A program made the translations under genes and the position numbers. The notes below the pieces were generated by a model. It saw nothing but the letters and a program-made list of their open reading frames with translations. It ran no database searches and had not been told where the DNA came from. Positions 1,959-13,721 of a stretch of DNA of 64,000 nt are shown in pieces (the stretch's first letter is position 1; every line of letters starts with the position of its first letter). Source of the stretch: an uncultured Candidatus Poseidoniales archaeon (lineage in GTDB: Archaea > Thermoplasmatota > Poseidoniia > Poseidoniales > Thalassarchaeaceae); assembly GCA_905182515.1 (NCBI GenBank), contig CAJJBW010000003.1, positions 19,248-83,247 on the forward strand. The letters are read 5' to 3'.

Positions 1959-3251
1959 ATGAGTGACGGTGGACTTCTTCAGAAAGCGTTGGAACAACAA
2001 GAAAAAGACAATTCAGGGAATAATGAATTAATGGATGCTAAAATTCCAGTATCTTCAAATACTCAAAAATCAGATGGCAATCATACTCTGAATATAAAAA
2101 ATATGCCTTCTTTAAAAAAAATCGGACTATCGCTAGCACTCGGGGGCTTACTGCCTCTTGTGGTGATAATGTGGTTTGGAATATATTTGATACCTGATGC
2201 TTTCCCAATTACTATCATAACTCCTTTGATTTCAATCATTTCTTTAGTATCTGTGTGGGTATATTTAGGCATAGGACTTCCTTCTAACTTCGGTGGCTCG
2301 GGAATTCATATTATTCCTGCAGTAATTGTGACAACATCATATTTATTCATGCTTCTAATGCCTGCAATCATGGGTATGCTATTGGTGGGAGATATGTCAA
2401 TAGGAGATGTCGAAATAAATGATGAAGGCACGGAATTAGAAGTCAAGATACGTCAAAACGGAGGATCTTCGTCTCCTATTGATGCAGTTGTCGTAATAGG
2501 CACATACTCTCAAACAATGCAATTAAAAATAGACAAATCTGATGGCTATGGGGATTATGGTAAATTGTTACTGCCAATCTCAGATTTTTACTCTGGTAAT
2601 GCGTTACCCTCATCTGATTATATTTTAGAAATAACAATTGAAGATAAGACAATGTCTACTATTTTAAATTCTAAATACCTATCAAGGACTATCGACGATG
2701 TTCAAAGCCATACGAACGGAATTATAAGTGAAGATTCCGATGATTGTGGTTCATTCGATAATTGTGTAATCGGTGTTTCTTTGGTTTCTTGGGCTGGACT
2801 GGATTCAAATGACCGTCCCGCAAGTTTGCCACTAGCAAATTATAATTTATCTGCCACGTTGTTCTATGAAAATGGGAATACGGCAATTGCTTATCCAACT
2901 GTATCAGTAACTGGTAGTCATTTGGAGCCCTTTGCAGTAGCATCATGGGATTCCAATTCTGGAGAATTTGGCTCAGGAAATTATGTAATAGGGGATTATG
3001 GATCAGAACTCCCTCTGCAAGGTTCTACTGAAGAGCCCAATTTTGGAGGTTTCAAGTATGTTCCAAAAGATCAATGGGAAGAATCACGTTATGGCTGTTA
3101 TTATTTTGTAGTTGAAGTTACGCAAGATAATACGTGGACTAATGAAGAAATTGTTTCACATACTTCTTACTATAATTATATCGAAGAAACTGCACCTGGG
3201 GAAGGCGGCGGTTCAACTGAATCGTGGGCAGTATCTTCAGATCCGTGTTAA
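1959..3251 (+). CDS. Hypothetical membrane protein (3-4 TM helices, then an acidic extracellular domain)
   Basis: 430-aa ORF; hydrophobic segments at about aa 55-145; its stop abuts the stop of the convergent ABC ATPase. Confidence 0.75.
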   Translation: MSDGGLLQKALEQQEKDNSGNNELMDAKIPVSSNTQKSDGNHTLNIKNMPSLKKIGLSLALGGLLPLVVIMWFGIYLIPDAFPITIITPLISIISLVSVWVYLGIGLPSNFGGSGIHIIPAVIVTTSYLFMLLMPAIMGMLLVGDMSIGDVEINDEGTELEVKIRQNGGSSSPIDAVVVIGTYSQTMQLKIDKSDGYGDYGKLLLPISDFYSGNALPSSDYILEITIEDKTMSTILNSKYLSRTIDDVQSHTNGIISEDSDDCGSFDNCVIGVSLVSWAGLDSNDRPASLPLANYNLSATLFYENGNTAIAYPTVSVTGSHLEPFAVASWDSNSGEFGSGNYVIGDYGSELPLQGSTEEPNFGGFKYVPKDQWEESRYGCYYFVVEVTQDNTWTNEEIVSHTSYYNYIEETAPGEGGGSTESWAVSSDPC

Positions 3252-3986
3252 TCAATCCCATGTTGAGAGAAATTTTTGCATTCTTTCTGTTTGAGGGTTG
3301 TCTATTATGTCACTCCCTCCTTCTTCTGCAATAATTCCTTGATCCATATATATAATTCTGTCAGCAACATCTCTTGCAAATCCAATTTCATGTGTGACAA
3401 TTACCATCGTCATTCCTTCATCAGCTAATGAACGTATATTTTCTAATACTGAACCTATCAATTCGGGGTCAAGAGCACTAGTAGGTTCATCAAAAAGTAA
3501 TATTTCTGGTTTCATTGCCAAAGCTCTAGCAATTGCAACTCTTTGTTTTTGACCTCCTGAAAGGTTACCTGGATATGCATCCTTCCTATCTAACATATCC
3601 ACTCTTTCTAATACAGAAAGAGCAAGGTCTTCTGCTTCACTCTCGCTCATTCCTCTGACATGGATGAGACCAAGTGTTATATTTTGTAACACCTTTAAAT
3701 GTGCAAATAATTCAAATGATTGAAATACCATTCCTATTCTTGATCTAATCTCATTTATATCTACAACTGGGGTATTGATTCTGTTTCCTTTTAGCATCAC
3801 GATTCCCTCTGTGGGCTCTATTAATCTATTTATACACCTTAATACCGTCGACTTACCGCTTCCAGAAGACCCAATTATCGCTACAGACTCTCCTTCATTG
3901 ACATAAAATGAAACTCCTTTTACTGCATGGACTCCCCCTGGATAAATTTTATGCATATCTTTAACATTTAATACTTCTTTATTCAT
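3252..3986 (-). CDS. glnQ: Polar amino acid ABC transporter ATP-binding protein (GlnQ-like)
   Basis: Walker [16 protein letters not shown]-loop, signature [25 protein letters not shown] switch. Confidence 0.92.
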
Positions 3987-3995
3987 AAAATAACC

Positions 3996-6356
3996 TCATA
4001 CGATTCCTAAACCCGGGATTTTTGTCTTTACTTCAATCCTTCTAAGTATTAATGCTAAAGTCCAAGTAACTACAAAATATGATATCATTACCATACCCCA
4101 TGTCCATGTAATTTGAAATGTTATTGCATTTATCAACTTACCTTGCCTGGTCAACTCGGTGTATCCTATGACCATGGCTAATGATGAATTAAGAACAAGA
4201 TTGACCATTTCATTACCAAGAGGAGGTATGCAAATTCTTATTGACTGAGGTAAAATAATCAATCTCATGGTTTGTAGATATGTCAATCCTATGCTTCTCC
4301 CTGCTTCCATCTGTCCAGAAGGTATTGCAGCTATTGCTCCTCTCAGGGTTTCACATTGATATGCCCCTGAATTCATGGCCAATGCACATATTGCACTCAA
4401 ATATATTCTATCGCTGAATATATCTGCTAAATACGGGATGTTATCGAAAATTCCATCTGCTGCATTTTCTATTCTTTTTCCCATTTCAATGCCGAAATGT
4501 AAGAAAAGAAATTGTACAACCAAAGGAGTATTCCGGAACATATCGGTGTATAGTGTCGCAAGTGAATTCAACGGTCTCAATTCCCATGGCTTAATTACGA
4601 TTTTTTTATCTTTCAGATAAGGAATCTCAACATTTGAATACTTCCCATTACTGGTTAATAGTAATAATCCTGGGAATGTAATAAATATTCCCAAAATAAA
4701 ATAAGAAAATGCCATTGGATCTCCAATAGGAGCAAATATATATGCCACGCCAGATAAATCCAATTTTTTAAATGAAATTACTGATTCAAATATCATAGCA
4801 AAACCTCCTCTTATCTCCATCCCTCTAATATTTGGAATTCCAACGATATAGGATAATCCTAAAATACGCGTCCACAATAACCTTCTTTCTGAAGAAATTA
4901 CCAATCCGAAAAACCCTTCTTGACCAGATAATTCTTCTGAATAATTATTATTATTTACAAATTCTATTAATTTAATTATCAGAAGTAAGGTAATTATCAC
5001 TAATACCGAAAATAATATATTTTCAAATTGTCTTGTTAATAAAACTGAAAGTGGCAACATGAACCATGAAAAAAATATTACTCTTTCCAAATGGCTCTCG
5101 AGCATGTCCTTTAATGATGTTGGGGCTGTTTTCAGCATGGCCAATGTTATTCCTATTATGAACCCAAATAAAATACCAAAACCAACGATTTTCATTGTTG
5201 CTATCAAACCATCAAGCATCCATGAAGAGTACTTATCTGCAAATTTACCAAATTTATTGAATTCTTCAATTTGAAAGCCCAATGTTTGATCCAATCCTTC
5301 TGTACATCCATCCTCATTAATTCCAGTGACTAATATAATTCCCTGGCTACCAGATAATACTCCGCAGAAACCATCAATCATTTCTATGTCGTATATTGTC
5401 CAATTCATCTCTAGTGGAATTAATGAAATATTATGTTCTTCAACAGTATTACCACCATCTTTGCTAGTTGCAATATAATTATTAGTCCCCGTTATTATGA
5501 TTTTTAAAGGGTTAATGACATCAATATTCACAATTTGAATATTATTATCTGGAAGTTTTTCTTCTGTCACTAGATCCCATTCAAAACCTATGCTAGTTTC
5601 TAAATTTCTAGACACTAGTATCCGACCTTCTTGTGTTGTTGCATAAGCTTTTGAGTTACTGAATAATTCTATTGAAATAATGTTTGAGTTTTTTATTGCA
5701 TCTGGCGGAGTAATAATATCCCAAGTAACTCCTTGATCTATTGTTGTTAAAATTAAACCATTATTTCCAACTATTATTCCATTCTGGCCATTATTATCAT
5801 CTATGAATGATATTGAATTATACTGCATTGAACCGTTCATGGAGATATTTTCCCATGCATCTCCATCATAATTCCATAAGGTACCTTTATCTCCAATTAC
5901 AAAAAAATAATCATCAGATGATATTGCTATATCTTTCAAATCTATTGAATTATCAGGGATAGACAAGTCTAACCATTCTGAAACACCCCTTTTTATCATT
6001 ACTAGGCCATTAGATCCTGCTATGGCCAAATTGCCATTTAGGTAATCTGATGATGTTAAATTTTCATTAGTTATTGAATCAAAAATATTCCAATTATGGC
6101 CCTTGTCGTCACTATGCATCATTAATCCAGATTCACCAAATCCCCAGACTTCATTTCCTTCTGTGGATATTACATTTAGAATATCTAATTCGGTATCTGT
6201 AGTGATTAATTCCCATCCACTCTTCTTGCTACTTTGCCCCTGTGCTTGTGTTGAACAAATTATTAATAATGTCAATGAAAATACTATTATTAGGCCCCTA
6301 AGGGTATTTTTTTTTGATTCTTTAGAATCAAGACATACCCTAGACAATTCACTCAC
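3996..6356 (-). CDS. Polar amino acid ABC permease (HisM/GlnP family) fused to an N-terminal YCF48/BNR-like beta-propeller
   Basis: C-terminal FRNTPLVVQ, NSGAYQCETLRGAI and EAA loop GQMEAGRSIG; N-terminal repeats such as GESGLMMHSDDKGHNW, GNNGLILTTIDQGVTW, TSKDGGNT. Confidence 0.85.
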   Translation of the reverse strand: MSELSRVCLDSKESKKNTLRGLIIVFSLTLLIICSTQAQGQSSKKSGWELITTDTELDILNVISTEGNEVWGFGESGLMMHSDDKGHNWNIFDSITNENLTSSDYLNGNLAIAGSNGLVMIKRGVSEWLDLSIPDNSIDLKDIAISSDDYFFVIGDKGTLWNYDGDAWENISMNGSMQYNSISFIDDNNGQNGIIVGNNGLILTTIDQGVTWDIITPPDAIKNSNIISIELFSNSKAYATTQEGRILVSRNLETSIGFEWDLVTEEKLPDNNIQIVNIDVINPLKIIITGTNNYIATSKDGGNTVEEHNISLIPLEMNWTIYDIEMIDGFCGVLSGSQGIILVTGINEDGCTEGLDQTLGFQIEEFNKFGKFADKYSSWMLDGLIATMKIVGFGILFGFIIGITLAMLKTAPTSLKDMLESHLERVIFFSWFMLPLSVLLTRQFENILFSVLVIITLLLIIKLIEFVNNNNYSEELSGQEGFFGLVISSERRLLWTRILGLSYIVGIPNIRGMEIRGGFAMIFESVISFKKLDLSGVAYIFAPIGDPMAFSYFILGIFITFPGLLLLTSNGKYSNVEIPYLKDKKIVIKPWELRPLNSLATLYTDMFRNTPLVVQFLFLHFGIEMGKRIENAADGIFDNIPYLADIFSDRIYLSAICALAMNSGAYQCETLRGAIAAIPSGQMEAGRSIGLTYLQTMRLIILPQSIRICIPPLGNEMVNLVLNSSLAMVIGYTELTRQGKLINAITFQITWTWGMVMISYFVVTWTLALILRRIEVKTKIPGLGIV

Positions 6357-6465
6357 TAAATCCCGATTGACACTTAGAATATAGAACCCTCGTATGATAA
6401 TTTATTAATTTAATTTCTATTGAAACATCAGTAATGTTAATTTCCTTAATTCCTTTCAGACGGCC

Positions 6466-7377
6466 ATGGGTGAGTTAATTTACCAAGGAAAAGTAAAAGA
6501 AGTTTGGAGTACCGATTCTCCAGATGTAATTGAATTTAGATATACAGATCAAATTAGTGCTTTTGACCAAATTATCCCAAGTCTCATCCCTAGAAAAGGA
6601 GAATCACTAAATCGTACTTCTGCTCACTGGTTCAAGATGGTCGAAGAAGCAGGTATTTGTGAAACTCACGTTATCAGAGTAAATGCACCTGATAGGATAC
6701 TAGCACGAAAATTTGAGGTAATACAAGAACCCGGTGCAATTGACAAGGATGCTGAAAATGTATTCGTACCTTTAGAAGTAATTTGTAGACATTATCTAGC
6801 TGGTTCTGGGTGGAGACGATACGAGCGAGGAGAGGCAGACGCAGAAGAGTTTGGATTTGAAAAAGGCACAAAATTATCTGAAGGAATAAAATTACCACAA
6901 CCATATCTTGAAGTATCTACTAAATTTGAACCATTTGATCGTCTTTTGGATAGGGAAGAAGCCCTCTTGATTTCCAATTTAACTGAACAAGAATTGGATA
7001 GTATCTTGGAAATAGTCCTCAAAATTGATGAAATAATAAATAAAGAAGCCCTTTCAAGGGGATTAATTCATGTTGATGGGAAAAAAGAATTTGCACTTGG
7101 GAAAAACCGAGTTCCTGTATTAGTTGATTCATTTGGGACTTTAGATGAAGATAGATGGTGGGATGCCGAAGCTTATGATAGAGGGGAGATAATACAACTT
7201 TCTAAAGAATCAGTACGTCAGCATTATCTTGACACTGGCCATCATGATGTACTTTATGCTGCTAGGAAAAATGGGAGTGAAGAACCTCCTATCCCCGAAC
7301 TTCCTCAAGAAATCATTAATGCTACTTCTAAGTTGTATTCTGATATGTTTGAGCGCCTTACTGGGTCACAGTTTTAA
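6466..7377 (+). CDS. purC: SAICAR synthetase
   Basis: YQGKVKEV, TDQISAFD, IPRKGESL, PLEVICR, VDGKKEF, DEDRWW and SKESVRQ motifs. Confidence 0.93.
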   Translation: MGELIYQGKVKEVWSTDSPDVIEFRYTDQISAFDQIIPSLIPRKGESLNRTSAHWFKMVEEAGICETHVIRVNAPDRILARKFEVIQEPGAIDKDAENVFVPLEVICRHYLAGSGWRRYERGEADAEEFGFEKGTKLSEGIKLPQPYLEVSTKFEPFDRLLDREEALLISNLTEQELDSILEIVLKIDEIINKEALSRGLIHVDGKKEFALGKNRVPVLVDSFGTLDEDRWWDAEAYDRGEIIQLSKESVRQHYLDTGHHDVLYAARKNGSEEPPIPELPQEIINATSKLYSDMFERLTGSQF

Positions 7378-7380
7378 GAA

Positions 7381-8007
7381 TTATGAATGTTTCCTCATCA
7401 AAATTCCACATCCCCTTCTTTCTGCAGATTTTAATATCTTAACTAAATTTTTAAATATTTCTTGAACTCCTCCGTCGTAAGTTTCTTGAGCAGAAACTAT
7501 CCATCTTCCTTTCTGGATATTGGTTTTTAGTTCACTAACTTCTTCTAAACTCAACCAGCCCATAAGTTCCAATCCTGCTATTCCTTTCTGATATCCTTCA
7601 ATTCCTAAATCCTCTTTTGATAATCCATTCATAAGTTTGTAAAGCAATTCATGTAATCTACTTTCAAAATCTTCCTGTGATGTATATTTTAATAGATATT
7701 TTATGGCATTCCCATCAGACGTCGGGAATCTGCCTATCCTCTCTTTTGCATTATTTCTATCTAATGGAATCGCTCCTCCTCCATCTTCTTGCCAATCTAA
7801 AGAAGATATGAAAAGCATGGTCGCTCTATCTAAATTAGATTTCTCACCTTTCTTAAGATTGGGAAAAGATTTTTTCCTATCTATTAATTTCATTAAATCG
7901 TCATGTTCTCCTTCTATGCTCATTTCTATTGAAGGGATTAGTTCTTCAACATCTATTTTCAATGGATCAAAAGTATAGAATGCACTAGTGGGTAAATATT
8001 TATTCAT
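7381..8007 (-). CDS. Hypothetical protein
   Basis: 208-aa ORF filling the gap, codirectional with and 17 nt downstream of the 1898-aa ORF; no motif recognised. Confidence 0.7.
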   Translation of the reverse strand: MNKYLPTSAFYTFDPLKIDVEELIPSIEMSIEGEHDDLMKLIDRKKSFPNLKKGEKSNLDRATMLFISSLDWQEDGGGAIPLDRNNAKERIGRFPTSDGNAIKYLLKYTSQEDFESRLHELLYKLMNGLSKEDLGIEGYQKGIAGLELMGWLSLEEVSELKTNIQKGRWIVSAQETYDGGVQEIFKNLVKILKSAERRGCGILMRKHS

Positions 8008-8024: not shown

Positions 8025-11000
8025 TTACTCGTCTCGTCGAATACGCTTCAACCTACGTTCGAAATCATCTAATATTTCCTCGTCCTCATTCTCTTCTTTA
8101 TCGTCCAAAATTTCTCCTTCGGGGTTATCTTCCTCTATTCCTATGTATTTTTCCTCGCGTGCTAAGATTTCCTCTTTAATTACTGGAATTTCTTTTTTAA
8201 TTTTATCTTCATTAGGTTTCCCAGATATGTATAATTTATCTTTTATTGCCCTTTCAGTCATCTCTTCTAATTCTTTCATATCTCTGCGGTTTTTCAATAT
8301 CCATGAAAATACGATATATAAAATTATTATTGCAAATGCTGTAACCAAACTTAAGGGAGTAAATATGGATCTTTCATTATCAATAGCACCGCCTGTGAGC
8401 ACCTTTCTGATTTCATTATCTGCCTGATTTGCATCAATTTCCCATGGGAATGCACAATTTATCCTGACAATTATTTCTGTCCCATCTTCTATTCCCATCG
8501 GCCGTTCAAATTTTGGTTTAGGCGTCAATGCTTCTCTGGTACTCATATCAATTTTTTGAACTGATTCGTATTCTCCTGCTGTAAGTGTTATTGTGCAATC
8601 AGCATCTATTAACTGACTATGGCCGAATCTTTCAGCTGTTATAGCAATTATTTGATTATTTCCTGTTCCTATCAACTCTATGGATGTCAAACCAAGATTC
8701 CAATTATTTTTCCTAATTTCAAAATCCTTTTGATAATTTCCTATTTCATGCCCCTTGGAATCTATTATTCTTATCTCCAAAGTCCTAATTCCGGGGCTGG
8801 GTTCCCAATGTATTGAACTAAGGTTAATATTAGTTATTTGTTGAAAATTATTTAATATTCCAAATTTTGAATCTATAATTACCCCCTTATCGTCCGTAAG
8901 CAACATAGTATATTCAAAACTAGTATTCCCTGGCCCAATTGAACATGAAGAATGAACATCTCCAACAATTCCAGATATCTGGCACGTCACTGATCTTTTA
9001 TTTATTTGATAAGTTTCTAGGATATATGGTAATTTATCTCCCTCATTAATTGTAATGTTGCCATAAGTTATAGAATTCAATGCACCAGTGGGTAATAACC
9101 ATCCCTGTTCTGTCCATTGAAGCTCACTTCCTTGTTCGCCGATAATCGTGTCTTGATTTTGATCCACTCCTCTTATGTTGATTACTGCATTATCTCCTAG
9201 ATAAGAATTTATGAACGGAGAACTACCCCAAGAATAATCACTAAATTTAGTATCTATAAATATTTCTTGTTGATTACCTCTGCCATCTTCCGCTAGTATT
9301 CTAATTGTTTTGATTGATCCATCCCAATCTTCTGAAGGAATGATTTCCAATGGTAAGCCACTTTTTTCATTATTGGATAATACGATTTTAGTAGGGCCAC
9401 TCATGTTCCAACCTTGAGGTAAACTAAGTATTTGAAGTGATATTGTAGTCGGTGAATTCCCATGATTCTCTAAAGATACCAGTGCATAACCTCCGGTAGG
9501 TGATAATATCCATGAGTCATGCTTTACCATTGTAAAATTATAAATTGCAGATACACGAAGAGGCAATGTTATCTCTGAAGAAACACTTGAATCTCCTTCT
9601 CTTACCTTTACGTGCAACTCAACAGATTTTCCATATTGTGCATTATCAGGAGGGGTAACGTTCAAGATCATTTCACTAATTCCTCCTGGTGTTATCATCG
9701 GCAATTCATTAGGGGCCAATACTGTCCAGCCGTTTTCTCCAACAATCCATACAGAGACATATGGTCTAGATGCCATATTCCCTAATTGAACTATTGTCAA
9801 CTCAACGCCTGAACCATTATTCCCTATCTCTAGGTCAGCGTCATTAGCCACAACGGTCCATCCCGGGGAATGTTTTACTCCTATTTCAAAAGAAAATACA
9901 CCTACTTCATCTTCACCAGATACTGCAATGATTTTTACAATCATTATTGAGCCCACTAGTGCTCCTTCGGAGATAGTTGCATTAACCTGCATATTGACTG
10001 TCCCATTAACTCCAACTCCAGTTCTTGCTTCTCCAGTGGCAAGCCATCCAGCAACCAAATCGTTAGGTTCTAGGCTTAATTCTGTTATTGCGATTAGCTC
10101 TATATCATCAATCATGTTGCCTAAATTTTGAGCATTTACTTCTACTTGTAATGTATCTCCTGGATTTATCGTATATTCATTCCCACTAACTTCATTTCCA
10201 TCAATTTTAGCATCTATGGACCAAACATGATTTTGCCTGGCTTGAATTACAAGTATTTTCGAATCAGTAATTATTGTATCTCCTCTTGATGTCATAATTA
10301 TTTCTATATTGATATCTACTCTGGCCGGAGTTGAAGGAGGAATTACTATTGTGATCGGTATTGCCTTCAAACTCCCTGCTTCAAGAGATATAGGATTATT
10401 GGAAAATGTGATTATTATGCCTGGATCGCTTGTAATATTCTGATCTAAAATAATGTTGTGAGATAAATCAAACGAATCTCTTCCATTTCCTGGATTCTCA
10501 AGACGAAGAATTGCTACTTTTTCTTCCCCAATGTCTGCGAAACTTGGAATTTCAGTTGGAGAAGTTATCGTTAATGAGGCTCTGTAGATTTGCAATACTT
10601 CAAGAGAGAACTTAAGATTTGACCCTAGAGGGCCGGACGAACTACTAAATAAATGATACATCGGAGGAGAGTTATCTGGTAAATCTAGGTATAATACTCC
10701 TGTGCTTCTCGATCCGGGAGTCCCTTCAATACTTATCATTCCTCCAATTATTGAAACTTCTCCAGTTGTATTCCAGCTCCATCCATTTATTGCCATTCCT
10801 GAATCTGCTAATGACCAATTTAGGTATTCCTCGTCACTAGGGATATCTGCAATTATCGTCCATTGCAAACCTTCGGATGGCACAGACCTTTGATGATTGT
10901 TTTCAAATAGCACTCTTGATACTTCAAAACTTAATATTATTGTTTGACATATTTCTTCTTCGCCATTCCCTACACACATTGTCAGAGGTGTACTTACGGT

Positions 11001-13721
11001 TTCTTCATATTCGGCATCACTTGGAATCATTAATTTTGCTGCCATTTCTTTTGTTTCACCGGGTCCAAGTAGCAATGCTGTTTCTTCCACATCTTGAGAA
11101 TTGAATAATTTTAAATCCGATCCCCAATCAGTATTGTCCCAAGATATTGTAATTTGATTTTCTGCTGCATTTCCAACATTTTCTATCATTAACCATGCTG
11201 CTGCATAACTGCCAATTAGCCCATACCCTTCTGTAAAAGCTGTACCGTCAGGGCCTCTTAGTGAGAGCCCTCTTGTCCGATTGGCCTCGATTGGTAAAGT
11301 CGCATCTACGCTAATATTGTTATTTGCATCCAATACTAAATTAAGGACCAAAAAACCAGAATCAGAACCCAATGCATCATTTGGGGCATTTATTGATATT
11401 TCGGGGCGCCATGTTTCTCCAACTTTTATTTCAACGCCCTCTAATTCACTTCCTGAAACCTCATTCCAAGACCATCCAACTGGTAAATTACTAGAATCAA
11501 TATTCATGCTCCATGTCCCTGGTAACCTTCCTGTGGAACGTATCGTGGGAATGGCTATACTACTTTCTCCTGGATTGACCCTAATTGGATCAGTTGGTAT
11601 TTCAAAAGAAGCATTATATGGTGGTATTATGAACAATGTTTTTACTTGATTATCGTTATCATATCGAGATTGAGTTATATTCCTATATGGGTCTAATTTT
11701 AATTCAAAAATATGGCTACCTAAATCTCCCTCCCATTCTACATCAAAACTTGAGAATGTACCTGGCCCACTTGGATCTATTGGCTGCATATTTCCTGACC
11801 TATATCTCCCAATTTCATCACCATCTGCATAAAGGACCGCATCTACTCCTTCTTCCGTTGTAGAAGTTCCAGAATTTTCAAAGAATGCAGTTATTGTTAC
11901 TTTTTCTCCAGGATCGGGTTCATTTGGGTTAAACTCTATACTTCTGTTGTCTGTTAACGGCCTAATGTCTACTATCCCAGTAGATACTACCATGCTGCCA
12001 ATGACTATGTCTAAAGTCGCATCTCCATCGATATCTGCTAGAGAGGGAGAAGACCATGTTCTATGGCTTAATTCTACTTCGTTTGACCACTCTGAATTTA
12101 TTGCTGTCGACGTCCCTTCTTCTCCATCAAATGCCCATAGCGATCTACCATACGCAACTAACAATTCTTGTCCATCCTCTCCATCAATATCCATCCAAGT
12201 TGGTGCACTAACTGCAATTTCATCATTTGGAGTGCCACTACTCTGCTCTAAGTCTCTATTCCAAATTTGGTCAGGAATTGTTCCACTGACGTCATGACAT
12301 CCTGCTTCTCCGTGCCTTGCTGTGGTTGTTTGCCACCATGTGACCCAACAAATTCTATCATATATGCCGTCTGAATCAGAGTCTATTGCCGTAGGAGGCG
12401 CATCTGCAAAGCCGTTTACAGAATTGAAACTCCAAATTTCTTCCCCATCGCTGATTTCTATTCCTCTATATTCTGCACCATCTGCACTTGCAGAGCCATC
12501 AGCATCAGTGGGAATGGTAATTATCATTTCAGGAACACTATCAGAGTCCAAATTTACTATTATTGGACCAGGTAATCTAATGTGAGGAACATTATTGTCA
12601 CCATCGATATTATTCAGACTTAGGCCGCCATCCCAGCTAGAATCTCCTGTCTCAGACTCTATTTTCCAGATCCACATTCCTCCACTATTCGCTTCTATTG
12701 TGGTTAATAATATGTAAGCTGTTGAATCATCAGTTTTTGCAAAGGCTGGATCAGAAGGGTGACTGCCTTTGTCTAGGCTAACCTGCCAAATTGGATTGGG
12801 TACACTACTTGAAGGTAAAGGAAGTGCTAAGACTACTGGTTCATCTGTTATCTGATTAATTAGAGTAAGTATTAGTTCAGCATCACCGTCTAGGTCTATA
12901 TCTGCTAATAGAAGCTGAGTTGTTGGATTGTGCCCTCCAAGTAAATCGCTTGTGTAAGGGCCTTCTTGACTCCCAATTAGTAATGTTTCGTCACTCCAAG
13001 TCCAAAGTAATTCTGATGAATGACTTCCTGAGGACCATCCTGTTACCGAGCAAGATAGCCTAGGTGACCAAGCCTCGACAAAAACTGAACCCCCTGCATC
13101 ATATGCAATTATTATTTCTTGTTTGCCATCTTCATCGAGGTCAATTATCACGGGAGATGTTTTTATTCTTTCAGTCATACCTAAATCTACTTGCCAAGCT
13201 AGGTCAGAATCTTCTCCTTCTATGATGCGAAGAAAACTATGGTCGGAACCTGATACAACTTCGGTTTGAATAATTATTAAAAATAGAGAATCTTCTCCAC
13301 AGCGTTCTGAGGCTTCAACATCTTTAGTAATTGAATTTTCAAAATTAGCAATTGGAGTAGCTAATGCATCGTTACCAATTTCATAACTACCATATTCCCA
13401 ATTTATTTTTGGATCTATTATTGACATTAGTTCTGATGAATTGTTGGGATCTTCAAAACCTGCTCCTCCTTCTGGGCTATGGGGAGGAATGTCGCCAATC
13501 CTATCACCTGTTCTTCCAAATTGCGGCCAAGCCTGTCCTCCATCTGACCAAACATCAACTGAATTATGAGAGGTATTCCTTATGGATTCATTATCATCCT
13601 CGGTCATAATTAAATTATTTGAAGTTAGCAAAGGAGAAACCCCAACTAATAACATGATGAATGTTATCATCAGTGTTTTCCGAGCATTTTCGGAATGGTT
13701 CTGTATAGTGCCCACTACCAT
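8025..13721 (-). CDS. Large membrane-anchored surface protein: FG-GAP-like Ca-binding propeller, CARDB, tandem Ig-like (NEW3-like) domains, TM and charged tail
   Basis: Signal peptide; WPQFG; repeated DxDxDG hairpins (IDLDEDGKQE, DIDLDGDAE, DIDGDATLD); repeated IEN.GN Ig strands; TM near aa 1790-1810. Confidence 0.8.
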   Translation of the reverse strand: MVVGTIQNHSENARKTLMITFIMLLVGVSPLLTSNNLIMTEDDNESIRNTSHNSVDVWSDGGQAWPQFGRTGDRIGDIPPHSPEGGAGFEDPNNSSELMSIIDPKINWEYGSYEIGNDALATPIANFENSITKDVEASERCGEDSLFLIIIQTEVVSGSDHSFLRIIEGEDSDLAWQVDLGMTERIKTSPVIIDLDEDGKQEIIIAYDAGGSVFVEAWSPRLSCSVTGWSSGSHSSELLWTWSDETLLIGSQEGPYTSDLLGGHNPTTQLLLADIDLDGDAELILTLINQITDEPVVLALPLPSSSVPNPIWQVSLDKGSHPSDPAFAKTDDSTAYILLTTIEANSGGMWIWKIESETGDSSWDGGLSLNNIDGDNNVPHIRLPGPIIVNLDSDSVPEMIITIPTDADGSASADGAEYRGIEISDGEEIWSFNSVNGFADAPPTAIDSDSDGIYDRICWVTWWQTTTARHGEAGCHDVSGTIPDQIWNRDLEQSSGTPNDEIAVSAPTWMDIDGEDGQELLVAYGRSLWAFDGEEGTSTAINSEWSNEVELSHRTWSSPSLADIDGDATLDIVIGSMVVSTGIVDIRPLTDNRSIEFNPNEPDPGEKVTITAFFENSGTSTTEEGVDAVLYADGDEIGRYRSGNMQPIDPSGPGTFSSFDVEWEGDLGSHIFELKLDPYRNITQSRYDNDNQVKTLFIIPPYNASFEIPTDPIRVNPGESSIAIPTIRSTGRLPGTWSMNIDSSNLPVGWSWNEVSGSELEGVEIKVGETWRPEISINAPNDALGSDSGFLVLNLVLDANNNISVDATLPIEANRTRGLSLRGPDGTAFTEGYGLIGSYAAAWLMIENVGNAAENQITISWDNTDWGSDLKLFNSQDVEETALLLGPGETKEMAAKLMIPSDAEYEETVSTPLTMCVGNGEEEICQTIILSFEVSRVLFENNHQRSVPSEGLQWTIIADIPSDEEYLNWSLADSGMAINGWSWNTTGEVSIIGGMISIEGTPGSRSTGVLYLDLPDNSPPMYHLFSSSSGPLGSNLKFSLEVLQIYRASLTITSPTEIPSFADIGEEKVAILRLENPGNGRDSFDLSHNIILDQNITSDPGIIITFSNNPISLEAGSLKAIPITIVIPPSTPARVDINIEIIMTSRGDTIITDSKILVIQARQNHVWSIDAKIDGNEVSGNEYTINPGDTLQVEVNAQNLGNMIDDIELIAITELSLEPNDLVAGWLATGEARTGVGVNGTVNMQVNATISEGALVGSIMIVKIIAVSGEDEVGVFSFEIGVKHSPGWTVVANDADLEIGNNGSGVELTIVQLGNMASRPYVSVWIVGENGWTVLAPNELPMITPGGISEMILNVTPPDNAQYGKSVELHVKVREGDSSVSSEITLPLRVSAIYNFTMVKHDSWILSPTGGYALVSLENHGNSPTTISLQILSLPQGWNMSGPTKIVLSNNEKSGLPLEIIPSEDWDGSIKTIRILAEDGRGNQQEIFIDTKFSDYSWGSSPFINSYLGDNAVINIRGVDQNQDTIIGEQGSELQWTEQGWLLPTGALNSITYGNITINEGDKLPYILETYQINKRSVTCQISGIVGDVHSSCSIGPGNTSFEYTMLLTDDKGVIIDSKFGILNNFQQITNINLSSIHWEPSPGIRTLEIRIIDSKGHEIGNYQKDFEIRKNNWNLGLTSIELIGTGNNQIIAITAERFGHSQLIDADCTITLTAGEYESVQKIDMSTREALTPKPKFERPMGIEDGTEIIVRINCAFPWEIDANQADNEIRKVLTGGAIDNERSIFTPLSLVTAFAIIILYIVFSWILKNRRDMKELEEMTERAIKDKLYISGKPNEDKIKKEIPVIKEEILAREEKYIGIEEDNPEGEILDDKEENEDEEILDDFERRLKRIRRDE

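Follow-up and report, generated by a model that had tools for sequence, protein, structure and literature searches.

What does a β-propeller do on an amino acid importer whose locus encodes no binding protein? The question is raised by a stretch of 64,000 nucleotides (nt) from an uncultured archaeon of Marine Group IIb (MGIIb), in the Thalassarchaeaceae; the genome is 71% complete, and “the window” refers here to the whole of that stretch. On the minus strand, between positions 3252 and 6356, lie two tightly coupled genes: a fusion of a propeller to a permease of the ATP-binding cassette (ABC) type, and then an ATPase. The reading that we favor, with a probability of about 0.6, is a binding-protein-dependent type I importer of the polar amino acid transporter (PAAT, TC 3.A.1.3) family with an accessory propeller. 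The propeller itself is most likely an accessory ectodomain, i.e., one that replaces a binding domain in position only.

The permease part of the fusion matches BPD_transp_1 (PF00528) at residues 594–772 (6.9e-16; 58.9 bits against a cut-off of 26.4). NCBIfam assigns it to the GlnP type (2.5e-33), with further matches to cystine permease and EhuC. The closest solved transmembrane domain (TMD) is that of Art(QN)2-ArtJ from Thermoanaerobacter tengcongensis (PDB 4yms–4ymx): residues 375–411 align to ArtQ 10–46 and residues 592–776 to ArtQ 47–212 (4yms_D, 2e-27), with an interruption between residues 411 and 592. The HEQRo signature (TIGR01726) scores 41.8 bits against a cut-off of 42.2, with a match confined to residues 592–626. 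This signature of three transmembrane (TM) helices is split by an insert of 180 amino acids (aa), and TM1 aligns separately to ArtQ. The core carries the motif FRNTPLVVQ and, at about residues 684–704 (nt 4248–4307), the EAA coupling loop (EAGRSIG...ILPQ). In the ATPase, Walker A, the Q-loop (MVFQSF), the signature (LSGGQKQR), Walker B, and the H-loop (VTHE) are all intact. It matches GlnQ in NCBIfam (2.7e-85) and ABC_tran in Pfam (1.4e-37), with a GlnQ score (285.6 bits against an equivalog cut-off of 379) that indicates family membership rather than an exact orthologue. Judged by these matches, the transporter is a PAAT member at the family level, equivalog cut-offs not being reached.

The original prediction for this locus had described a two-gene unit with a 9-nt gap, flanked by a divergent purC and a convergent open reading frame (ORF) and lacking a gene for a binding protein. 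The coordinates and the description are correct, and no binding-protein gene is present within the transporter locus of the window. A Shine-Dalgarno-like GAGG overlaps the permease stop codon. Metatranscriptome contigs cover parts of both genes with zero mismatches, and two of them run across the 9-nt junction (X26, 3745–4099; X27, 3915–4172; 0 mismatches). With RNA crossing from one gene into the next, the permease and ATPase genes are co-transcribed in the sea.

Permeases of the HisQ/HisM/ArtQ type have five TM helices, with the N-terminus outside. Because the propeller is N-terminal to TM1 in a permease with this topology, it is expected to be extracytoplasmic, and the predicted signal peptide agrees (Table 1). 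Signal-peptidase cleavage probably occurs after TQA, since a small residue (A or G) is conserved 5–9 positions before an SGW motif in the homologues. In an AlphaFold2 model built from a 33-sequence MGIIb alignment, a single continuous helix (residues 369–410) begins ~10 residues past the last propeller strand, and its second half is TM1. Residues F369, F372, G383, T387, and K409 are invariant in that alignment. The predicted template-modeling score of the whole model is 0.47, and the placement of the propeller relative to the TMD is thus not readable from it.

The same model gives the N-terminal region 28 strands in seven four-stranded blades (residues 43–360; predicted local distance difference test values of 85–93), with Asp-box-like SxDxGxxW turns between strands C and D. 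This agrees with the YCF48/BNR propeller placed at residues ~45–345 (nt ~5320–6225) by the original prediction. The Pfam family PSII_BNR/Ycf48 (PF14870) matches with 1.8e-15 (57.4 bits, cut-off 27). In a Foldseek search of the PDB, the top 12 matches are all Ycf48 (5ojr, 5oj5, 5ojp, 2xbg, 5oj3, 8am5), with E-values down to 1.6e-14, target TM-scores of 0.70–0.76, and identities of 14–16%; generic WD40 propellers come next. A periplasmic binding protein (PBP) fold was also considered for the N-terminal region, and was rejected on the seven-bladed model, the Foldseek ranking, and the lack of any PF00497 signal. The propeller is, by these comparisons, a member of the PSII_BNR fold family and not an orthologue of Ycf48, because the NCBIfam equivalog PRK13684 gives 58.8 bits against a cut-off of 326 and the host does not perform oxygenic photosynthesis. 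This genome holds only one PSII_BNR locus. A propeller-only search of 1.84 billion representative proteins retrieved the fused family (~10 clusters), followed by giant multi-propeller proteins.

Between TM1 and TM2, the permease carries the insert that interrupts the ArtQ alignment. In the model it contains helices at residues 423–444, 447–471, 489–505, and 547–567, as well as two β-hairpins, and so appears to add four extra membrane helices; hydropathy backs three of these (423–441, 446–464, and 549–567), not 489–505. Across other MGIIb lineages, the insert varies or is absent in part. In the versions from Marine Group III (MGIII), which are 606–625 aa long, a plain five-TM core lacks the insert and the propeller is kept. 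At the other end of the protein, the cytoplasmic C-terminal tail KT(K/R)IPGLG (3999–4030, residues 776–786) is near-invariant across MGIIb and MGIII homologues and is lengthened to ...GISGG in most of them; a role in regulation or in binding a partner is conceivable.

The fusion is widespread. A search of 5.8 billion proteins yielded at least 571 clusters at E ≤ 1e-3 among 8,000 candidates scored; the 120 clusters listed have PF14870 throughout and, with the exception of one partial sequence, PF00528 as well. It occurs in 80 named species genomes (Thalassarchaeaceae, Thalassarchaeum, MGIIb-N1/O1/O3, and Poseidoniales), among them single-cell (AG-xxx isolates) and long-read assemblies; the corresponding loci are the best 80 of 201, all from Thalassarchaeaceae/Poseidoniales records. 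The ATPase lies directly downstream of the permease in all but one of these (79 of 80). In at least 20 metagenome runs, drawn from over a dozen studies, 99–100% of the words sampled from this DNA are present. In a class-wide sample of 200 genomes, in which we equate the family labels f2 and f3 with MGIIa and MGIII by our own reading, the fusion is present in 43 MGIIb genomes of six genera and ~10 f3 genomes; among those listed for the sister family f2, none has it. That the fusion might be an artefact of assembly, absent from relatives, is at odds with these counts. A chimeric contig, or two genes miscalled as one, has next to no chance of being the explanation, given a frame that is open over 801 codons from stop to stop, identical DNA in all those metagenome runs, and the same architecture in the 80 species genomes. 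Full-text searches found no literature description of a propeller on a type I importer. A propeller permanently mounted on such an importer would be a new architecture; the transport machinery itself is of a known kind.

Whether the propeller stands in for a binding protein can be judged from relatives, in which a gene for a family-3 substrate-binding protein (SBP) adjoins the same fusion. In three MGIII loci (L023–L025), genes for an SBP (320–331 aa), the propeller-permease, and the ATPase follow in that order; the SBP matches PF00497 (3.6e-25), begins with a signal peptide, and ends in a TM anchor. Indeed, an SBP_bac_3 search of the 200 genomes found a family-3 SBP gene divergent from the fusion, a few hundred bases upstream, in every f3 genome that has the fusion. 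In the MGIIb genera g4 and g7, a homologous gene of 323–326 aa lies between purC and the permease, and an SBP-like gene occupies this position in 21 of the 80 species loci. The presence of an SBP gene next to the same fusion in relatives argues that the propeller evolved in company with an SBP rather than as a substitute for it. The original prediction that the propeller sits “in place of” the binding domain is therefore right about position and unsupported as regards function.

On a permease tree rooted on MGIII (FastTree, with local supports only), SBP adjacency needs at least four changes, and all eight members of the window’s clade on that tree lack an adjacent SBP gene. Because the outgroup is SBP-positive and at least four changes are needed, adjacency is best read as ancestral, followed by repeated loss, including in the window’s clade. 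Adjacent SBP-like copies in three MGIIb clades have lost the canonical motifs that presumably ligate the amino acid, their roles being assigned after LAO/HisJ-type structures. GVQSGTT, found in ligand-competent SBPs, has become GEES, ETPA, or GTPA; LGD has become IGP or LTS (the L039 clade keeps IAD); YPPFES has become a DQDSSM-like sequence; and SxTxxxxR has lost its Arg. The adjacent gene is conserved within clades, with 54–62% identity in g7 and three-quarters or more among g4-type copies. Its product may have become a pseudo-receptor, or else may bind a new ligand.

If the window’s transporter depends on an SBP, that protein must be encoded elsewhere. In this genome, PF00497 identifies two proteins only: AapJ, on contig C4, and the N-terminus of a 1,054-aa lipoprotein on contig C1. 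The first ~300 residues of the lipoprotein form the SBP3 domain, and the remainder comprises two LivK-type domains (Peripla_BP_6, 1.1e-29); its gene is followed by genes for a 1,226-aa permease, a LivHM fusion, and for a LivG ATPase. When a profile built from the adjacent SBPs was run on this genome, two genomes of the same genus, and a single-contig genome (G066), each gave a single match, the N-terminal domain of the lipoprotein (E-values from 2e-30 to 3e-41). By both PF00497 and this profile, no stand-alone family-3 SBP besides AapJ is present in this genome. LivHM-type translocators use cluster-B SBPs, not family 3, and the C1 SBP3 domain would thus be an orphan in need of a PAAT translocator. 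The propeller-permease is a PAAT translocator without an SBP of its own in this genome. The search for orphan family-3 binding proteins that had been suggested for this genome thus led to a candidate, and the earlier alternative that a binding protein is encoded elsewhere fits better than capture of substrate by the propeller.

The C1 SBP3 domain is 40% identical to the cognate SBP of MGIII, and both are circularly permuted relative to canonical SBPs. Residues 31–213 of the MGIII protein correspond to residues 118–295 of the C1 domain, and residues 214–283 to residues 39–112. Against the Pfam profile, the C1 domain runs from 38 to 129 and then from 1 to 36; the MGIII SBP is permuted at a different point, with lobe 2 first. 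Once re-permuted, the C1 domain retains VQSGTTSD, IGD, SDTTYPPFES, and SAMTITDARDEVVDFTRAYY, and its best match in the PDB is SBD1-2 (substrate-binding domains 1 and 2) of Lactococcus lactis GlnPQ (6h30, 4.7e-31). By its sequence, the domain is competent to bind amino acids. The lipoprotein is present in 42 of the 43 MGIIb genomes with the fusion and in 1 of the 23 without it. A single lipoprotein may feed two different ABC translocators. A separate observation concerns L029 (3–2678, on contig C19 of G148, minus strand), which encodes a secreted protein of at least 892 aa with a family-3 SBP domain that is complete, not permuted, and flanked by several Cys repeats resembling LDL-receptor class A (FVCDNGEEIPASWVNDGEADCSDGSDE).

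The conservation of the propeller was assessed across 27 homologues from MGIIb and MGIII, with loop classes assigned from the strand order of the model and standard propeller geometry. Mean top-residue frequency is 0.49 in the propeller, 0.64 in the linker and TM1, and 0.79 in the permease core. Of the 18 invariant propeller positions, 16 are Gly, Trp, or Pro, the two exceptions being F184 and S249. Polar residues are widely conserved only at D58, S94, D104, R/K236, E266, and K285, which are scattered over both faces. Ycf48 has a conserved arginine patch that binds the D1 peptide; here the only conserved basic residues, R/K236 and K285, both lie in bottom-face A-B loops. Among these homologues there is no conserved polar cluster, pocket, or catalytic center on either face, and no face stands out, with top loops, bottom loops, and strands similarly variable. 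The D-A loops of the top face are variable, with lineage-specific insertions. These data, and the finding that an SBP gene adjoins the fusion in MGIII and 21 of 80 species, tell against the original suggestion that the propeller captures substrate. An enzymatic propeller (sialidase/GH74-like) was set aside as well, since the match, to a glycosylhydrolase family, is weak and partial (27 bits against a cut-off of 175) and conserved acidic or catalytic residues are lacking. At equal identity of the permease core, the propeller is less conserved where the SBP-like gene has been lost than where it is kept (0.39 versus 0.44, 0.54 versus 0.67, and 0.66 versus 0.77). This is the opposite of what is predicted if the propeller took over as receptor, and hints weakly that the propeller works together with the neighboring SBP-like protein.

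Known systems resemble the transporter in different respects. GlnPQ of L. lactis (6h30, 4kpt) has the same two-gene layout, with one permease and one GlnQ ATPase forming a homodimeric translocator, and draws on the same permease and ATPase families. It likewise has a signal peptide and a large extracytoplasmic module joined N-terminally to TM1 by a short linker, and its SBDs are those matched by the C1 SBP3 domain. However, the fused module is a Venus-flytrap PBP in GlnPQ and a seven-bladed propeller here; the PBP is here a separate gene (in relatives) or a lipoprotein domain (in this genome), and the permease has the 180-aa insert. The SBD-fused class (GlnPQ/OpuA) is defined by a fused PBP, which the transporter lacks. 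Art(QN)2-ArtJ and Escherichia coli GlnHPQ and HisQMP2 share the five-TM core, the EAA loop, and a free or tethered family-3 SBP as in MGIII, but their permeases lack an extracytoplasmic domain and an insert between TM1 and TM2. In E. coli MalFGK2, the P2 loop of MalF binds MalE with a Kd of 7–22 μM, and MalE stays attached throughout the cycle (PMC6906923). P2 is likewise a large extracytoplasmic domain on the TMD of a type I importer, and there, too, a separate SBP is needed. It is an immunoglobulin-like domain of ~185 aa between TM3 and TM4 of a CUT1 sugar permease, whereas here a PAAT permease bears a 320-aa propeller N-terminally, for which SBP docking is proposed by analogy. Ycf48/HCF136 (2xbg, 5ojr, 8am5) has the same seven-bladed fold, belongs to the same Pfam family, and is also on the non-cytoplasmic side. 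Ycf48 binds a membrane-protein partner; the propeller here is covalently fused to the transporter, in a host that is a non-photosynthetic archaeon (no search was made for photosystem II genes).

The favored reading can be put together as follows. The complex would be (propeller-TMD)2(GlnQ)2, by analogy with Art(QN)2 and GlnPQ, with each permease chain exporting its N-terminal propeller by means of the signal peptide and the short conserved helix, running straight into TM1, holding the propeller above the membrane. The ancestral unit would have consisted of a membrane-anchored family-3 SBP, the propeller-permease, and the ATPase, an arrangement kept in MGIII. In MGIIb, the neighboring SBP gene would have lost its ligating residues and later been deleted several times, including in the window’s lineage. 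Substrate would then be delivered by the SBP3 domain of the SBP3-LivK-LivK lipoprotein, with AapJ as an alternative donor that we rank as less likely. The substrate is probably an amino acid of the Glu/Gln type, because of the similarities to GlnP, GlnQ, and the GlnPQ SBDs and because glutamate dehydrogenase is the convergent downstream neighbor in 37 of the 80 loci. The propeller could retain membrane-tethered SBPs at the translocator in a cell without a periplasm. Such a role, as a platform that docks or retains a tethered binding protein much as MalF P2 does for MalE, is the one that we favor for the propeller, if only tentatively and at less than even odds.

Several observations weigh against this reading. 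The assembly, at a completeness of 71%, may have missed a stand-alone SBP, although none was found in the two same-genus genomes or in G066 either. The co-occurrence of lipoprotein and fusion follows whole genera and is not phylogenetically independent; it is suggestive only. At least four losses of the neighboring SBP gene were survived, which means that the system works without that gene; such survival would be compatible with an SBP-independent mode as well. The donor could just as well be AapJ, encoded in the aapJQMP operon on C4. The substrate is assigned by similarity only, and the glutamate dehydrogenase neighbor is missing from the window’s clade, which has two unknown secreted proteins and a CD36-like gene instead.

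An SBP-independent mode could mean that, in lineages without the SBP gene, the translocator is triggered by the tethered propeller itself, after its capture of an amino acid or a short peptide. The locus has no SBP gene, and the fusion and ATPase stayed intact through the losses of the neighbor. The propeller is also placed exactly where GlnP bears its SBDs, on a short conserved linker, and its structural relatives bind peptides, the top Foldseek entries being titled “YCF48 bound to D1 peptide” (5ojr). However, the propeller co-exists with a ligand-competent SBP in MGIII, and so was not born as a receptor; its invariant residues are nearly all Gly, Trp, and Pro, with no conserved polar or charged pocket; it is less conserved where the SBP-like gene has been lost; and the genome has an orphan SBP3 domain that looks ligand-competent. 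Type I importers, moreover, sense an open-to-closed motion, which a rigid propeller cannot make. We therefore regard direct capture as unlikely. Still a shade less credible is the stronger claim that the propeller is the receptor or an obligatory co-receptor in MGIIb without the SBP gene, or, in a variant, an adaptor that lets the SBP3-LivK-LivK lipoprotein serve two translocators.

Two further roles are each about as improbable as direct capture. The propeller might bind proteins, peptides, or a secreted peptidase, such that amino acids are released at the mouth of the transporter. MGII, and MGIIb in particular, is rich in extracellular peptidases and in amino acid and peptide transporters (PMC6336850, PMC9723583), a wealth that suits such coupling. 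The nearest relatives of the propeller outside the fused family are giant secreted multi-propeller proteins, and variable top-face D-A loops with lineage-specific insertions are what would be expected for changing macromolecular partners. Against this, no peptidase gene is conserved in the neighborhood of the related loci, and no conserved binding surface was found on the propeller. Alternatively, the propeller could be structural, either stabilizing or assembling the large TMD, or spacing or anchoring the transporter under an S-layer, with no part in recognizing substrate or SBP. Its conservation is purely structural, a rigid helix joins it to TM1, and Ycf48 is itself named a photosystem II assembly factor (in the names of PF14870 and PRK13684). 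However, MGIII permeases with a plain five-TM core keep the propeller, which is hence not there for the insert; the oversized AapQ and AapM of this genome have no propeller; and the higher conservation of the propeller where the SBP-like neighbor persists hints at a link to the SBP.

Table 1. Coordinates of the transporter genes, their parts and neighbors, and of binding-protein genes in this genome and related loci. Positions without a prefix are those of the window; C, contig of this genome; L, related locus.
Feature	Position	Strand	Description
Permease fusion	3996–6356	minus	786 aa; GTG start; upstream gene
Predicted signal peptide/anchor, Sec-type	6243–6356	minus	Residues 1–38; hydrophobic core 18–36 (hydropathy); GTG start
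Propeller, Ycf48/BNR-type, seven-bladed, extracytoplasmic	5277–6230	minus	Residues 43–360
Linker helix and TM1	5124–5276	minus	Residues 361–411; conserved
TM1–TM2 loop insert	4587–5123	minus	Residues 412–590, ~180 aa; lineage-specific
Canonical permease core, TM2–TM5	3999–4586	minus	Residues 591–786
Spacer	3987–3995	minus	9 nt between permease TGA (3996–3998) and ATPase ATG (3984–3986)
GlnQ-type ABC ATPase	3252–3986	minus	244 aa; motifs from translation
Intergenic region	6357–6465		AT-rich, divergent, between permease and purC
purC	6466–7377	plus	Divergent from permease; PF01259, 3.5e-43
430-aa ORF	1959–3251	plus	Convergent; abuts ATPase stop; no Pfam match
313-aa ORF	928–1869	plus	Secreted or membrane protein; no Pfam match
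1,898-aa acidic surface protein	8025–13721	minus	C-terminal TM anchor
SBP3-LivK-LivK lipoprotein	C1:249878–253042; partly L001 1375–3528		1,054 aa; lipobox AGC
aapJQMP operon	C4:306–6286		Canonical order; AapJ at head
Adjacent SBP-like gene	L021 2186–3166		
Adjacent SBP-like gene	L022 3747–4718		
Adjacent SBP-like gene	L026 2085–3065		
Adjacent SBP-like gene	L030 3605–4582		
Adjacent SBP-like gene	L039 2715–3725		

The surroundings of the pair hold further genes (Table 1). A Pfam scan of three neighboring ORFs, the 313- and 430-aa ORFs and one at 7381–8007, gave no match. The 313- and 430-aa ORFs, which encode secreted or membrane proteins, are convergent neighbors of the ATPase and are conserved in 30–34 of the 80 related loci; in loci that have them, they take the place of glutamate dehydrogenase, and a CD36-like gene comes next. 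In several genera, synteny extends from the transporter region to the 1,898-aa surface protein, and homologues of this protein in related loci have weak matches to FG-GAP, CARDB, and NPCBM_assoc. In the aapJQMP operon, which is otherwise canonical, the permeases AapQ (721 aa) and AapM (550 aa) are unusually large. Multi-TM expansion of ABC permeases would seem to be a habit of the lineage.

MGIIb are among the most abundant archaea of the surface ocean, and we know of no member in culture. They have been described as proteorhodopsin photoheterotrophs (PMC6336850). In metatranscriptomes, amino acid uptake via aapJ and livK is among the most transcribed MGIIb functions (PMC9723583), and the MGII genome and transcriptome papers treat only the aapJ and livK binding proteins (PMC6336850, PMC9723583). 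The transporter described here is spread over many MGIIb genera and MGIII and is transcribed in the sea. Docking of tethered SBPs by its propeller would add a second, independent case to that of MalF P2, and would reveal how binding proteins are kept near the translocator when there is no periplasm. A propeller that proved to be a receptor would instead violate the rule by which a Venus-flytrap protein is required in type I importers. The family also bears on the evolution of binding proteins, with permuted family-3 domains, a fusion to LivK, and the stepwise decay and repeated loss of a dedicated gene.

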